From Alphaproteobacteria bacterium (GTDB taxonomy: Bacteria > Pseudomonadota > Alphaproteobacteria > SMXQ01), in NCBI GenBank assembly GCA_004356985.1, contig SMXQ01000148.1, forward strand, positions 5,973-69,972: a stretch of 64,000 nt of DNA, read 5' to 3'. The position numbers and the translations under genes are program-made. Below are positions 58,325 through 64,000 of this stretch, one piece after another. The notes under the pieces are model-generated. The model searched no databases. It was given only the letters and a program-made list of their open reading frames with translations, and was not told the origin of the DNA. Position 1 is the stretch's first letter. The number at the start of each line of letters is the position of its first letter.

Positions 58325-59209
58325 CTATTTCTTCTTACGGTTATATTCGCCGAGCCCCGGACGGTAGGACTTGTCGTCGAGGAACTGAACCATGCCCTTT
58401 TGGCGGCCATTTTCCGGATCCGACCATTTCAGGGCATCGGACTTGGCGTTGAGGTAATCGGCCGCCTGATTCTCGCTCATCTCCCTGACGGCGCGGACCG
58501 CTTCCTTGGTGTAGCGCACCGCCACCGGGTTCTTCCTCATCATCTTCTTGGCGAGCTTGATGGTTTCGGCCTTGAGCCTGGCCTTGGGCACCGATTTGTT
58601 GACGAAGCGCATATTGGCCGCTTCCTTGCCGGTGAAGGTATCGCCGGTGATGGCGTAATACATGGCGTCGCGGAAGCTCAGGGTATTGACCACGTTCCAG
58701 CTGACGATGCCGCCCGGCAGGATGCCCCAGTTGATCTCCGACAAGCCGAAGATCGCGTCATCGGCGGCGATGGCGAGATCGCACGCCGTAACCTGGGTAA
58801 AGGCGCCGCCGAAGCAATACCCGTTGACCATGGCGATGGTCAGCTTGGGAAATCGCGACAGGGTCGTCCAACGCCAGTGATGGGAGGCTTTCTTGGACTT
58901 GTAGCGCAGGGCCGGGTCGCCGGTGGTGCCGCGGAAATAGAGCCGGATGTCCTGGCCCGCGCTGAACGCCTTGCCGGCCCCGGTCAGCACCACCACGTCG
59001 ATGGAATCGTCGATCGCCAGTTCTTCGAGCGCCTCGTTCATGTCCAGGTGCATTTGCGGGCTCATGGCGTTGCGTTTTTCGGGCCGGTTCATGATGACCC
59101 AGGCGATGCGGTCCTTCTTCTCGACCAGGACGGTCTCGAATTTCTTCACCACCGCCTTCGACGATTTGCGGGCGGCGGGCCTCTTTTTGGTAGCGGCGCG
59201 TGTAGCCAT
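58325..59209 (-). CDS. crotonase-fold enoyl-CoA hydratase, hydroxycinnamoyl-CoA hydratase-lyase (HCHL/FerB)-like; Lys-rich N- and C-terminal tails
   Basis: VIMNRPEKRNAMSP, TIAMVNGYCFGG, FGLSEINWGILPG, QKGMVQFLDDKSYRPGL recall HCHL family signatures. Confidence 0.65.
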   Translation of the reverse strand: MATRAATKKRPAARKSSKAVVKKFETVLVEKKDRIAWVIMNRPEKRNAMSPQMHLDMNEALEELAIDDSIDVVVLTGAGKAFSAGQDIRLYFRGTTGDPALRYKSKKASHHWRWTTLSRFPKLTIAMVNGYCFGGAFTQVTACDLAIAADDAIFGLSEINWGILPGGIVSWNVVNTLSFRDAMYYAITGDTFTGKEAANMRFVNKSVPKARLKAETIKLAKKMMRKNPVAVRYTKEAVRAVREMSENQAADYLNAKSDALKWSDPENGRQKGMVQFLDDKSYRPGLGEYNRKKK

Positions 59210-59287
59210 GGTTCAATCCTCCCTTTTCATGCCGTTGTCAGTTTGCACCGAAAATTTCGTGCCTTTCCTGGCACGCAGAATAAAGCA

Positions 59288-60442
59288 TTATCCATAAGTC
59301 CTCAAAATGTTCCGCGCGATCACCATCTTCATGACTTCGCTCGGCCCTTCGGTGATGCGGTTGGAACGCGCCTGGCGCCAGAACCGCTCGATGGGCAAAT
59401 CCGTGGTCAAGCCGATGCCGCCGTGGACCTGCATGCACCGGTCGGCGACCCGAAACACCATTTCGTCGGAATAATACTTGGTGATATAGGATTCCTGGCG
59501 GATGTCCTCGCCGGTGTCGGCCTTGGTTGCGGCATGGTAGACCATCAGCCGCGCGGCATGCAGTTCGACGAAGGAATCGGCGATCATCCACTGGATCGCC
59601 TGGCGGTCGGACAGGGGCTGGCCGAAGGTGACCCGCTGCTTGGCGTAGGACACCATCATCTCGATGCAGCGTTCGGCGACGCCTAAGGCGCGCGCGCCGT
59701 GGCGCAGCCGGCCCGCGCCCAGCCAGCGCTGGCCCAGCTTGAAGCCCTCTCCCTCGGCGCCGACCCGGTGGCTGGCGGGAACCCGAACATTTTCGAAGAC
59801 GATCTCCCACGGCTTGTCGCCCATCATGGTCTGGTACTGGGTGGTCAGGGCGACCCCCGGGGTATCCATATCGACGATGAAACACGATATCCCGCCATGG
59901 GACCCCTTCTCGCGATCGGTCGCCACCATCAACTGGATGAAATCCGCTTCGCCGGCGCCGGTGATGAAACGCTTGACCCCGTTGATTACGTAGTCGTCGC
60001 CCTCGCGCACCGCCGTGGTGCGCATGGAGCCGGGGTCGGAACCGGCATCGGGTTCGGTCTGGGCGAAGCAGGCATGCTTTTCGCCGCGGATCACCGGATA
60101 GAGGTAGCGCTCCTTCATGTCGTCGGAAAGTTCATAGAGGATGGCGCGCACGCTGGGCCCCGTGAAATAGCCGCCGCGGGACGGCAGGGCGGTGGTACGG
60201 GCGATCTGTTCGGTCACCACCACGGTGGCCAGGATACCCATGCCCTGGCCGCCGAACTCCTCGGGCACGTCCATCAGCCAGAGACCAAGTTTCTTGGAAT
60301 CCGTGTCGAATTTCTCCCTGAATTCCGGCTTCAGGGTCACCCCGTCGCAGGTCGTGAGTTCCACGGGGATCATCTCGGCGTCCACGTAGCGCCTGAGCGT
60401 TTCCTTGAGGAGCTGCATTTCTTCCGGCAGTTCGAAACTCAT
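59288..60442 (-). CDS. acyl-CoA dehydrogenase
   Basis: 384 aa; ACAD N/M/C domains, catalytic-base region …ARSNRITEGPSEVM. Confidence 0.85.
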   Translation of the reverse strand: MSFELPEEMQLLKETLRRYVDAEMIPVELTTCDGVTLKPEFREKFDTDSKKLGLWLMDVPEEFGGQGMGILATVVVTEQIARTTALPSRGGYFTGPSVRAILYELSDDMKERYLYPVIRGEKHACFAQTEPDAGSDPGSMRTTAVREGDDYVINGVKRFITGAGEADFIQLMVATDREKGSHGGISCFIVDMDTPGVALTTQYQTMMGDKPWEIVFENVRVPASHRVGAEGEGFKLGQRWLGAGRLRHGARALGVAERCIEMMVSYAKQRVTFGQPLSDRQAIQWMIADSFVELHAARLMVYHAATKADTGEDIRQESYITKYYSDEMVFRVADRCMQVHGGIGLTTDLPIERFWRQARSNRITEGPSEVMKMVIARNILRTYG

Positions 60443-60482
60443 GACGCCTTGTCCCCTGTGAAACTGATTTTATTCGCGCCCC

Positions 60483-62555
60483 TTAATCGGAGCGCCTGAC
60501 CGGGCGCACGTCCACGGCGGCGACCCCGGCGCCGCGTTGGCGCACGATCAACGGGTTGACCTCCAGGTCCGCGAGCAGGTGCCGATGGTCGAGATAGACC
60601 CGGCCCAAGCCTACCACGGCGGCCACCAGCGCATCGGTATCCGCCGCCGGCGCGCCCCGGAAGCCGGCCAGCAGTTCCCTGCCCTTGAGCTCGGCGATCA
60701 TGGCCCGCACGTCGTCTTCGTCCACCGGCAGCAGCCGCATAGCGGCATCCCCCATGAGCTCGACCATGATACCGCCGGTGCCCACCAGGATCACCGGGCC
60801 ATAGAGCGCGTCGTCGCGGGCGCCGACGATCATCTCCACGCCAGAGACCATCTCCTGGACCAAAAAGCCGGTGATCTCCGCGTTTGCATCGGCGGCGGCG
60901 ATGCGCCCGGCCAGGGTCGCGGCCCCGGCGCAGACCTCATCGGCGCTCGACAACCCCAGCAGAACGCCGCCCACCTCGGTCTTGTGGGAAAACGCCGGCG
61001 CGACCACCTTGAGCACCACGGGGAAGCCGATCGCCGCCGCCGCCTCGGCGGCGGCGGCGCCATCCTCGGCCAGGACGCTGTTGGGCAAAGTGACGCCGTT
61101 GGCGGCCAAGAGGTCCGCGAACGCGTCGCCTTCCAGGTTTTCAGGCGTGCCCGCCGGCGCCGGCAGGGGGGCAATTGTGCGCCCGGCGCGGGCGCCGTAG
61201 AAGACCAGCCCAGCCAAGGCGCGCAGGGTTTCCGGCAGGCCCTGCAGGTAGGGAATGCCGATGGCGTCCTGGTAGGCGATGCCGTCCTCGCCAAGGTGAT
61301 AGCGCATGCGGCCGAAGCCGATCACCGGCTTGGTGGTGCGGTCCACCAGCGCCCCCATGGGCGCCCCGGCGGCGATGTCGGCGCGGCCAGTGGAAATCTG
61401 CCCCGCCACCGCCAGGATATCGGTGGCGGGATCGTCCAGCGCCACGGCGCACAGTTCCGCCAGCAAGTCGTTGCCGGCGGGAATCCCCGAATCGAGCGGA
61501 TTCTTGGGCGTCATCTCCTTGGGCAGCAAGGGCCGCATGCGGGCCACGGTCTCGGGCTGGAAGTCGGGCATGGAGACCCCCTCGGCCTCGGCGTAGTCGT
61601 AGAGAAGGTCGACGGTCCCGCCCGAGGTGGTGACGAAGCCGATCCCGCCGCCCTCGGGCAACCGCCCCTGGCTGAAGGCCAGCGCGGTTTCCGTCATGTC
61701 GTCGAGGCTGGGACAACTGACGATGCCGTAGCGTTCGCACAGCGCCTCGAACGCCTGCCAGTCGCCGCCGATGGCCCCGGTGTGGGAAAGGGCCGCCTCC
61801 CGCGCACGTTGAGTGCGGCCGGTCTTGATGGCGATGATCGGTTTCGAAGCCGCCAGCGCGCGGGTGCAGGCGGCCTTGAATATTTCCGGCCGGCGGATGC
61901 CCTCGATGAACAGCACAATGATGCGGGTCTCGGGGTCATCGACGAAGAAATTGATGTAATCGGCGAGATCCAGGCCGATCTCGTTGCCCGACGACATGGC
62001 ATAGGAAAAACGCAGACCCCGGGACTGGGCGGTCTGGACCCAGAACTGCAAGGTGCCGCCCGACTGGAACACGGCGGCCACGGACCCCGGGGAGGGCTTG
62101 CAGATGCCGCCATTGGGATAGGCGAACAGCTTTTCCCTGAAGGCGATGCCGCCCATGCAATTGGGCCCGGCCAGGGCGATGCCCGCCTCCTCGCAAAGCG
62201 CCTTGAGGGCGGCGCCGCGGCCGACGATTTCCGGGTCCGTTCCCTCGCCGAGGTGCCCGGCATAGACCGTCGCCGCCTTGAGCCCGTGCCGGGCGCCGTC
62301 CTCGATCACCCCTTGGACCGCCGCCGCCGGCACGATCACCAGCGCCAAGTCGGCCGGTTCGGGCAAGGAGCCGAAATCATGGTAGCAGGGCACGCCATAG
62401 ACCTCGTCCCGGCGCGGATTGATGGGATAGACCTTGCCGGCGTAGCCGTTGGCCTTGAGATTCTGCCAGATGGTCTGCGGCCATCTGGCGCGTTCCGACG
62501 CCCCGACGATGGCGATGGTGGAGGCACTAAAAATGGGCTTGGGCGACCGGAACAC
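60483..62555 (-). CDS. ADP-forming (NDP-forming) acyl-CoA synthetase, fused CoA-binding/ligase-CoA + ATP-grasp domains (FerA/Fcs-like)
   Basis: 690 aa; N-terminal CoA_binding (IAIVGASERARWP), ATP-grasp C-terminal; same architecture as ADP-forming feruloyl-CoA/acetyl-CoA synthetases. Confidence 0.75.
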   Translation of the reverse strand: MFRSPKPIFSASTIAIVGASERARWPQTIWQNLKANGYAGKVYPINPRRDEVYGVPCYHDFGSLPEPADLALVIVPAAAVQGVIEDGARHGLKAATVYAGHLGEGTDPEIVGRGAALKALCEEAGIALAGPNCMGGIAFREKLFAYPNGGICKPSPGSVAAVFQSGGTLQFWVQTAQSRGLRFSYAMSSGNEIGLDLADYINFFVDDPETRIIVLFIEGIRRPEIFKAACTRALAASKPIIAIKTGRTQRAREAALSHTGAIGGDWQAFEALCERYGIVSCPSLDDMTETALAFSQGRLPEGGGIGFVTTSGGTVDLLYDYAEAEGVSMPDFQPETVARMRPLLPKEMTPKNPLDSGIPAGNDLLAELCAVALDDPATDILAVAGQISTGRADIAAGAPMGALVDRTTKPVIGFGRMRYHLGEDGIAYQDAIGIPYLQGLPETLRALAGLVFYGARAGRTIAPLPAPAGTPENLEGDAFADLLAANGVTLPNSVLAEDGAAAAEAAAAIGFPVVLKVVAPAFSHKTEVGGVLLGLSSADEVCAGAATLAGRIAAADANAEITGFLVQEMVSGVEMIVGARDDALYGPVILVGTGGIMVELMGDAAMRLLPVDEDDVRAMIAELKGRELLAGFRGAPAADTDALVAAVVGLGRVYLDHRHLLADLEVNPLIVRQRGAGVAAVDVRPVRRSD

Positions 62556-62739
62556 GGGTTTCTCCCTGATTTTTTTATGCGGCGATATTCGTTGCTTCCC
62601 CTACCCCTGTCAACCGGACGCCAGGGGCATGACCCGGCCCAATCGAACCCTTCGGCCGCAGGGTCCCCAGGGGCCGGGCTTGCCCGGGGACGACCCCTTG
62701 AGATACTCTTGCCCCCACCGGTCATCAGGGAGAAGTTCC

Positions 62740-63090
62740 ATGCGCGGACCCCATGACGTCGGCGGCCTCGAGGCGGGCCCCGTGGACACCACCACCCATG
62801 ACATGAGTTTCTGGGAAAAGCAGATCGACGCCCTGCACGCCCTGGTGGGCGACGAAAAGCGCGGCATCGTGCCCAAGGGCCAGAACCGCCGCTATGTCGA
62901 GGCGCTGGGCGAAGACGTATACAACACGCTCAATTATTACGAACGCTGGACGGCGACCATGAGCCAGCAACTGCTCGAAAAAGGCATCCTCACGCGCGAC
63001 GAGATCGACGCCAAGGTCAAAGAGATCCGCGACCGCCTGGAAGCCACCGGCGAATTGGAGCTTGGCCAGGGCGAAGCGGAAAAGATCTGA
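62740..63090 (+). CDS. nitrile hydratase-family beta subunit, N-terminal half (separate ORF)
   Basis: MRGPHDVGGLEAGPVDT… classic NHase β N-terminus (MxGxHDxGG); AGGGAGAAG RBS; stop TGA overlaps next ATG (TGATG). Confidence 0.7.
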   Translation: MRGPHDVGGLEAGPVDTTTHDMSFWEKQIDALHALVGDEKRGIVPKGQNRRYVEALGEDVYNTLNYYERWTATMSQQLLEKGILTRDEIDAKVKEIRDRLEATGELELGQGEAEKI

Positions 63091-63371
63091 TGGCGCGTTC
63101 CTTCGAGGCCGGGCAAGCCGTGCGGGTCCGCGATGACTACCCCCCCGGGCATATTCGCACGCCGGTGTTCATCCGCGGCAAGCGCGGCGTGATCACCCGC
63201 GATTTCGGTGAACACGATAACCCCGAGATCACCACCTACGAGCTCGAGGGGCCGCAAAAGACGCTCTATGTCGTGCGCTTTCGCCAGATCGACGTGTGGC
63301 CCGATTACGCGGGATCCAAGGGCGACACGCTGGATATCGACATCTTTGAACACTGGCTGGAGCCGGCCTGA
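63090..63371 (+). CDS. nitrile hydratase-family beta subunit, C-terminal SH3-like half (separate ORF)
   Basis: GQAVRVRDDYPPGHIRTPVFIRGKRGVI…FEHWLEPA matches NHase β C-terminal barrel. Confidence 0.7.
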   Translation: MARSFEAGQAVRVRDDYPPGHIRTPVFIRGKRGVITRDFGEHDNPEITTYELEGPQKTLYVVRFRQIDVWPDYAGSKGDTLDIDIFEHWLEPA

Positions 63372-63381
63372 GGAGCAACCC

Positions 63382-64000
63382 ATGACCGATGCGACAAGTT
63401 CTGGCGGCCACGGCCATATCCACCGTGAAAGCGGCCCGCCCCAGCCCGACGACAAGGTCCACAGCTATTACCAAATCCTAGGCATCGCCCTGCAGGAACT
63501 GCTGATCGAAAAGGGCATCGTCAGCGCCGACGAAGTGCGCCAAATGATCGAGCGGCGCGATGCCATCACCCCCGCCCGGGGCGCCAAAATCGTCGCCCGC
63601 GCCTGGACCGATGGCGATTTCAAGGCGCGGCTTCTGGCCGACGGCAACGCCGGCGCGGCGGAACTGGACTGCCCCATGACCTACACCGAATTGGTGGCCG
63701 TCGAAAATACGCCTAAGGCCCACAACGTCATCGTCTGCACGCTGTGTTCATGCTATCCGCGCGAACTGCTGGGCCTGCCGCCGAGCTGGTACAAGAGCCG
63801 CGAATACCGCGCCCGGGTGGTGCGTGATCCCCGCGCCGTGCTGAAGGAATTCGGCACCGAGATCGGCGACCATGTGGAAATCCGCGTCCATGATTCCACC
63901 GCCGATATTCGCTACCTGGTGATCCCCCGCCGGCCGGCGGGCACCGAAGGCATGACGGAATCGGAACTCGAAGACTTGGTCACCCGTGACTCGATGATTG
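63382..64000 (+). CDS. cobalt-type nitrile hydratase-family alpha subunit (3' end beyond window)
   Basis: VCTLCSCYPRELLGLPPSWYKSREYRARVV metal-binding claw-setting motif (CTLCSCY = Co-type). Confidence 0.85.
   Translation, partial: MTDATSSGGHGHIHRESGPPQPDDKVHSYYQILGIALQELLIEKGIVSADEVRQMIERRDAITPARGAKIVARAWTDGDFKARLLADGNAGAAELDCPMTYTELVAVENTPKAHNVIVCTLCSCYPRELLGLPPSWYKSREYRARVVRDPRAVLKEFGTEIGDHVEIRVHDSTADIRYLVIPRRPAGTEGMTESELEDLVTRDSMI

Follow-up and report, generated by a model that had tools for sequence, protein, structure and literature searches.

A 64,000-nucleotide stretch of contig SMXQ01000148.1 (assembly GCA_004356985.1, positions 5,973 to 69,972), referred to here as the window, ends in three co-directional open reading frames (ORFs) on the + strand. 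They are predicted to encode a cobalt-type (Co-type) member of the nitrile hydratase (NHase) family in which the beta subunit is divided between two polypeptides: an N-terminal half (betaN), a C-terminal SH3-like half (betaC) and then a Co-type alpha subunit (Table 1). The hidden Markov model (HMM) E-values rule out chance as an explanation of the three ORFs. The betaN protein starts MRGPHDVGG..., with the HDVGG motif at its N-terminus, and finishes in an acidic C-terminal tail (TGELEL...) specific to this close family. The betaC ATG shares the A of the betaN TGA (cTGATGg), giving a 1-nt overlap through which the second gene is predicted to be translationally coupled to the first. Within betaC lies a GHIRTPVFIRGKRG motif that includes the second conserved beta arginine. 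Ribosome-binding sites read GGGAGAAG for betaN, at about 62728-62735, and GAGGAG for alpha. The window holds 206 of the 216 alpha codons, and the stop follows ~32 nt past its end; the full-length protein (216 aa, 23.8 kDa) was read from a longer contig of the same organism (L002, 10293-10943).

An initial annotation of the window had described three ORFs of these sizes and shared direction, the TGATG overlap and a VCTLCSCY motif in the third ORF. ORF coordinates and Pfam matches confirmed each of these, the motif falling at alpha residues 118-125. The locus start that it gave, 62556, is not a gene start, being the first base of the 184-bp intergenic region.

Table 1. Features of the nitrile hydratase locus and its flanks. 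Positions refer to the window unless another contig is named.
Feature	Position	Strand	Details
NHase beta N-terminal half (betaN, ORF1)	62740..63090	+	116 aa, 13.1 kDa; Pfam PF21006 NHase_beta_N, 1.6e-17
NHase beta C-terminal SH3-like half (betaC, ORF2)	63090..63371	+	93 aa, 10.8 kDa; Pfam PF02211 NHase_beta_C, 2.9e-20
Co-type NHase alpha (ORF3)	63382..64000, cut by window end	+	Pfam PF02979 NHase_alpha, 1.1e-78
Intergenic region between NHase operon and divergent CoA-ligase operon	62556..62739	.	184 bp
Candidate promoter toward NHase genes	TTGCCC 62680-62685, 16 nt, GATACT 62702-62707	+	By-eye reading
Candidate promoter toward CoA operon	TTGACA 62613-62608, 17 nt, GAATAT 62590-62585	-	By-eye reading
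Divergent operon	58325..62555	-	Pfam domains
ADP-forming acyl-CoA ligase	60483-62555	-	690 aa; NCBIfam match at family level only
Acyl-CoA dehydrogenase	59288-60442	-	384 aa; NCBIfam match at family level only
Enoyl-CoA hydratase/lyase, p-hydroxycinnamoyl-CoA hydratase/lyase type	58325-59209	-	294 aa; NF006588 382.5 (cut-off 276)
Multi-pass membrane protein	L002 10940-11737, just past window end		265 aa; downstream of alpha; ATGA overlap with alpha stop; about six hydrophobic segments

The full 216-aa alpha passed the NHase alpha model TIGR01323 (259.5, cut-off 249.85; the window-cut copy scored 249.3) and failed TIGR03887, the model for the gamma subunit of thiocyanate hydrolase (SCNase), with 207.7 against a cut-off of 291.45. 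Since a true SCNase gamma from Thiobacillus, run as a control, gave the reverse pattern (398.8 on TIGR03887 and 201.3 on TIGR01323), this test discriminates between the two. The best PDB matches of alpha were Co-type NHase alphas (206-228 bits), with SCNase gamma at 164 bits. For betaC the best match was residues 130-219 of the Pseudomonas putida Co-NHase beta 3qyh_B (49.8 bits), with GH.R.P.Y.RGK aligned, and for betaN it was the SCNase beta 2dd4_B at 37 bits, the NHase beta scoring 30.5 bits.

Over a 153-residue core, the window alpha was 61-64% identical to other split-type alphas and 53-57% identical to alphas partnered by a fused beta. Identity fell to 47.7% for the alpha of a Toy-like Rhizobium cluster (L105) and to 45-46% for the SCNase gammas of the two reference loci (L093 and L094, Thiobacillus and Thioalkalivibrio, found with the solved SCNase beta as query). 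In an unrooted neighbour-joining tree the five fused-type alphas sampled formed a clade with 93% bootstrap, apart from the split-type alphas and SCNase; neither the alpha nor the betaN tree resolved the deeper relations or the root. The HMM thresholds and the VCTLCSCY motif support the Co-type NHase-family reading of the initial annotation; the gene order matches scnB-scnA-scnC.

Conservation of the beta split

A near-identical three-gene region (3 substitutions in 1445 nt) with an identical betaN/betaC junction was present in at least six independent assemblies (NCBI, two ENA, two JGI and Logan), and the betaC protein was recorded in 53 blocks of the assembly index. These multiple assemblies exclude assembly error, yet they carry no evolutionary weight. 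A betaN search returned 529 relatives, of which the best 120 were nearly all stand-alone proteins of 103-123 aa that matched PF21006 only and were 58-99% identical to the query; 813 representatives were found at E<=1e-3. Among the relatives were proteins of other build (P0121, P0132 and P0183): some of ~200 aa are made up of a tandem pair of NHase beta N-terminal domains, and others of 320-365 aa have the domain fused to extra sequence.

A species-level scan, using one genome per species and the alignment of the close family as query, yielded 80 loci. These are close relatives, and distant taxa are not represented among them. None of the 77 loci that hold both halves (45-89% identity) had a fused beta. 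The junction itself differed between them, overlapping by 4 nt in 43 loci, by 1 nt as in the window in 11 and by 10 nt in eight, with small gaps in the rest, and the frame offset between betaN and betaC varied between lineages. Because no locus is fused while junction types and frame offsets differ, the split must be old and maintained by selection. The beta split is thus genuine and evolutionarily conserved, as the initial annotation had proposed in treating beta as truly two polypeptides. The betaN domain tree does not resolve at depth and gives no order, split or fused, for the ancestral beta.

The two halves cover separate parts of the single-beta model TIGR03888 (cut-off 152.2), betaN scoring 57 bits at positions 1-100 and betaC 73.7 bits at 137-226. 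A single beta of ~220-230 aa reaching at least 152.2 on this model is absent from the window locus.

Active site and pocket arginine

The alpha metal site reads C119-T-L-C122-S123-C124-Y125, followed by P126-R127. VCTLCSCY, which includes the metal ligands and the Co-type Thr and Tyr, was invariant in 73 of 73 family alphas. Across 41 diverse stand-alone homologues of betaN, R50 and Y66 were invariant and W70 nearly so; from the alignment we take these to be Arg52, Tyr68 and Trp72 of PtNHase beta. In betaC, GHIR...RGK aligns with GHTR...RGK of 3qyh_B, and by this alignment alone the second beta arginine, presumably Arg157 in PtNHase beta, is kept. Because the metal ligands and the beta Arg, Tyr and Trp are conserved, the enzyme looks catalytically competent.

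The residue after CSCYP sets the split-type alphas apart. In the window this motif reads CSCYPR, with Y125-P126-R127 encoded at 63751-63759. Arginine was found at this position in every split-type alpha examined, true SCNase gammas included. The set comprises 73 family members, Planktothrix agardhii PCC7805, three Rhizobium/Azospirillum plasmid loci and Roseovarius sp. THAF27 (loci L013-L092, L095-L097, L101 and L104). Fused-type alphas, compared in eleven plasmid loci and in solved structures, have Trp or Phe instead (L098-L100, L102, L103 and L106-L110). As it is common to all split types, the alpha arginine tracks the division of beta and does not identify an enzyme as acting on thiocyanate.

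Arg127 aligns with Arg136 of SCNase gamma, a residue that, in work by Yamanaka and colleagues in 2013, reportedly helps to select thiocyanate; Arg90 of SCNase beta is likewise said to govern selectivity. The scores of PDB entries 3vyg and 3vyh shifted as expected for mutants at the gamma Arg136 position, which lends these roles indirect support. At the beta Arg90 position the pocket triad is R-R-R in SCNase (ERRR, invariant in 120 of 120 betas), N-R-R in the window family (N49-R50-R51 in betaN) and x-R-x in fused enzymes. The equivalent of beta Arg90 is thus Asn49, so the second SCNase arginine is not present in the window protein.

The alpha N-terminus (window 63382-63450) has a short His-rich stretch, HGHIH. 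Most family alphas (L010-L089) carry a long His/Asp-rich tract here, with a median of about 8-9 His in 26 residues and often HDHDHD repeats, which could possibly act as a metal-capture tail. A role for it as a built-in metallochaperone was considered and dropped, since such N-termini also occur in some classical alphas that have an activator and the window stretch is weak; the feature does not discriminate.

Surroundings and distribution of the cassette

The window and the flanks of ~80 related cassettes, out to 5 kb, contained no homologue of four accessory/activator queries or of P15K, barring cross-hits onto betaN. Signature amidase, CbtA/CbtB, CbiM and cyanate lyase were likewise absent from these regions, and a Pfam test of ten large window ORFs placed all of them outside nitrile metabolism. 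Among the control loci, most classical NHases had an accessory gene and several an amidase or cobalt transporter, and the SCNase loci had a P15K-like gene and cynS, with CbiM in one. The remark in the initial annotation that no activator gene was visible is therefore true, for the full contig and the whole family (~80 loci) as well. The amidase that it had allowed for downstream was found neither there, nor elsewhere in the window, nor in any related locus.

The multi-pass membrane protein that follows alpha had no Pfam or NCBIfam match and was limited to the three closest relatives (L013 and L014 among the loci listed); on both grounds we rejected it as a cobalt transporter. Its ORF is broken by a frameshift in assembly L001. 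After it comes a small cysteine-rich secreted protein, also with no family match.

The divergent operon upstream comprises an acyl-CoA ligase, an acyl-CoA dehydrogenase and an enoyl-CoA hydratase/lyase, and resembles hydroxycinnamate catabolism of the ferA/ferB type with an added acyl-CoA dehydrogenase. This trio lies divergently beside the NHase cassette in 13 species-level loci, namely the window (L002) and 12 relatives (among them L014-L017, L024, L025, L048, L051, L055, L058 and L068), among which ligase identity falls to about 55%. In two of these loci, L015 and L025, the contig stops short of the hydratase/lyase, and in L017 no hit to it was found. The conservation of the divergent trio hints at a functional link between the NHase and the CoA operon. 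In the region between the two, the blocks GCGGCGATATTCG, CCTGTCAAC, CCGGGCTTGCCC and GATACTCT are kept in the orthologous intergenic regions of L014, L015 and L016. By eye this conserved pattern reads as back-to-back promoters (Table 1); a consensus scan of the locus called no promoter and no terminator, and an Rfam scan of the locus gave no match.

Most relatives have neighbours that differ from those of the window, including IMP dehydrogenase with a small iron-permease-like protein, TctC, MAPEG and others. In 16 loci a protein of the PF04120 low-affinity iron permease family (145-155 aa) lies between IMP dehydrogenase and the NHase cassette, on the opposite strand and about 450-600 nt upstream of betaN (L011/L023, L020, L029 and others). 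It could be a metal importer or mere local synteny. One subclade (L007-L009/L020 8001-13137; also L028, L035, L040, L064 and L091) has a TctC binding protein and a two-subunit molybdenum hydroxylase (Fer2 plus MoCoBD) inserted between betaC and alpha, placing alpha ~3 kb downstream. On Rhizobium and Azospirillum plasmids a second split order, betaC-alpha-betaN, was observed (L095 3570-4926, L097 3573-4911 and L101 2062-3459), and two annotated Rhizobium loci of this order adjoin CbtA/CbtB cobalt transporter genes. In the metagenome-assembled genome (MAG) CAZOBN01, one contig carries betaN and betaC with no alpha within 5 kb and another carries betaN then alpha with no betaC (L068/L082), which may be a dispersed or degenerate system or an effect of binning.

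The MAGs of the close family belong mostly to Hyphomicrobiales, Beijerinckiaceae, Micropepsaceae, Devosia and Rhodospirillales, with a few Gammaproteobacteria. RefSeq also annotates split loci in cultured bacteria, where the halves are named 'SH3-like domain-containing protein' or 'ScnB-like protein'.

Proposed function, alternatives and known systems

We consider with good confidence that the locus encodes a functional three-subunit Co-type NHase-family enzyme of an uncultured alphaproteobacterium, which most likely hydrates an organic nitrile to the amide. In the mechanism we propose, alpha would bind Co(III) through Cys119, Cys122, Ser123 and Cys124, and by analogy with studied family members Cys122 would be oxidised to sulfinate and Cys124 to sulfenate. 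Two small proteins, translated in a coupled manner, would share the role of a single beta, betaN giving Arg50, Tyr66 and Trp70 to the active site and the SH3-like betaC the second conserved arginine. Trimers of alpha, betaN and betaC most likely dimerise as in the deazapurine NHase ToyJKL, and maturation most likely proceeds without a dedicated activator. Judged from its conserved residues, this split-beta Co-NHase is probably active. Its pocket appears more cationic than the classical one, with alpha Arg127 in place of Trp and the additional betaN Arg51, which makes a polar or anionic nitrile a plausible substrate. The statement of the initial annotation that the substrate cannot be assigned from sequence still stands.

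Several points weigh against this reading. The route of cobalt insertion is unexplained, as is the fate of the amide product given that no amidase lies downstream, in the window or in ~80 related loci. Both beta halves score far under the TIGR03888 cut-off, and ~35 residues of the classical beta middle are absent. The position of Arg127 is that of SCNase gamma Arg136, so a non-nitrile substrate is possible. The window alpha N-terminus is weakly His-rich, with 3 His compared with the family median of about 8-9. Finally, the clade is without biochemical study, and 80 of 80 close relatives in the species-representative collection are MAGs.

The simplest alternative would be an ordinary two-subunit NHase whose beta gene has been frameshifted, through assembly error or as a pseudogene. 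A 1-nt change at TGATG would indeed join both frames, and a Sulfitobacter pontiacus plasmid locus (L107, 1932-3539) seems to offer an example: there a classical nthA (CSCYPW) and an accessory gene are followed by two short 'hypothetical' ORFs in the place of nthB, apparently a truly broken beta in contrast to the conserved split. The window locus is unlike L107 in having no accessory gene. Its junction is the same in the six independent assemblies, both halves retain conserved residues, their own starts and ribosome-binding sites, and the classical middle region is missing rather than out of frame. With no fused beta in 77 related loci and junctions of different types among them, we reject a frameshift or pseudogene as a practically negligible possibility. 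A second alternative is that the cassette encodes an SCNase, a three-subunit Co enzyme converting thiocyanate to carbonyl sulphide and ammonia. In its favour are the gene order of scnB-scnA-scnC (L093 and L094), which the initial annotation had noted, the best PDB match of betaN and the alignment of Arg127 with gamma Arg136 (true SCNase gammas read CTLCSCYPRPILGQ). In the unrooted alpha tree, moreover, the 93% branch that sets off the fused-beta NHases leaves SCNase gamma together with the split-type alphas on its other side. Nevertheless, alpha behaves on the two family models as the reverse of a true gamma, and its core identity is lower to SCNase gammas than to classical and other split-type alphas. 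The alpha arginine is shared with every split type examined (Roseovarius, Rhizobium and Planktothrix) and so is not specific to SCNase, and the invariant beta Arg90 is replaced by Asn49. The N-terminal extensions of SCNase are absent (betaN 116 compared with 157 aa, betaC 93 compared with 123 aa), and the initial annotation had correctly noted the smaller size of both halves relative to the SCNase beta and alpha subunits. Unlike SCNase loci, the window has no P15K-like gene, cyanate lyase or CbiM nearby. The thiocyanate option that the initial annotation had kept alongside a nitrile is now improbable, chiefly on the gamma model, beta Arg90 and the missing cynS and P15K-like neighbours.

Less probable still is an NHase of the ToyJKL type acting on 7-cyano-7-deazapurines such as toyocamycin or preQ0-like compounds. 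The three-subunit, activator-free architecture is common to both, and some relatives of the window cassette sit between IMP dehydrogenase and GMP synthase genes. This guaB/guaA neighbourhood, however, is confined to one subclade and looks like housekeeping synteny, and no queC, queD, queE or toy-like genes occur in the window locus or the family loci. The alpha of the Toy-like Rhizobium cluster, moreover, reads CSCYPT and sits on its own long branch, outside the window family. That cluster, on Rhizobium leguminosarum plasmid pRL23b2 (L105, 1-4453), comprises a phosphoribosyltransferase, a HAD hydrolase, queC, the NHase alpha, an IMP-dehydrogenase-like gene and queE, a toyocamycin-like set in which alpha stands alone, with no beta halves in the stretch examined.

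A broader extension of the nitrile hydratase reading, which we hold to be unlikely, is that enzymes with a split beta and a pocket arginine form a distinct, very widespread NHase subfamily for substrates other than neutral nitriles, with SCNase as its offshoot. In the window lineage the enzyme would then act on a polar or anionic nitrile such as a cyano-carboxylate, and its amide-acid product would directly enter the pathway of the conserved divergent CoA operon with no amidase needed. If true, this would be a nitrile catabolic route that dispenses with the amidase.

Nitrile hydratases serve as biocatalysts in industry and also detoxify nitriles, both natural and synthetic; almost all knowledge of them comes from two-subunit, activator-dependent enzymes. 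The window locus belongs to a large activator-free three-subunit clade in freshwater, soil and marine Alphaproteobacteria which is biochemically unstudied. Cultured carriers of split loci (Roseovarius sp. THAF27, Rhizobium plasmids and Planktothrix agardhii PCC7805) would ease experiments. Two leads merit a bench test: the conserved divergent CoA operon, and the pairing of split beta with pocket arginine, which gives a simple way to classify such enzymes from sequence and a means of testing what sets their substrate selectivity.

The three-subunit, activator-free architecture is already known from SCNase, ToyJKL and AnhD/AnhE/AnhA, and is common in databases. Ensifer adhaerens PnhA/CnhA was considered as a further three-subunit precedent and dropped, because its published genes are a plain alpha, beta and activator set. 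Classical Co-type NHases (Pseudonocardia thermophila 1IRE, Bacillus spp. 2DPP/1V29 and Pseudomonas putida 3QXE) provide the best alpha matches and share the metal ligands, and the equivalents of their beta Arg52, Tyr68 and Trp72 and of the second beta Arg are conserved in the window. Their beta, by contrast, is one polypeptide of about 220-230 aa, CSCYP is followed by Trp or Phe, and there is a dedicated accessory protein, often with an adjacent amidase and cobalt transporter. The SCNase of Thiobacillus thioparus (scnB-scnA-scnC; PDB 2DD4/2DD5) resembles the window in gene order, in the Co-type CTLCSCY and in the Arg three residues after the last Cys. What sets it apart from the window locus are additional N-terminal residues, about 45 in beta and about 30 in alpha, together with the gamma model, beta Arg90 and gene neighbourhood weighed above.

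The genes of the ToyJKL system run toyJ-toyK-toyL, with alpha first. ToyJKL of Streptomyces rimosus is an (alpha-beta-gamma)2 heterohexamer with subunits of 21.2, 10 and 11.4 kDa that needs no activator (PMC8574189). By description it also places the beta function in two small proteins, and its subunit sizes are close to the 23.8, 13.1 and 10.8 kDa of the window, but it lies within a deazapurine biosynthetic cluster and the window locus has no such genes. Streptomyces canus AnhD/AnhE/AnhA is a proven nitrile hydratase for neonicotinoid-type nitriles; its two small subunits are homologues of the N-terminal and the C-terminal part of beta, and it requires no accessory protein (PMC13243292). The likeness extends to a Co-type alpha and to the listed subunit order of N half, C half and alpha, which is that of the window, in an actinomycete host as opposed to an alphaproteobacterium.

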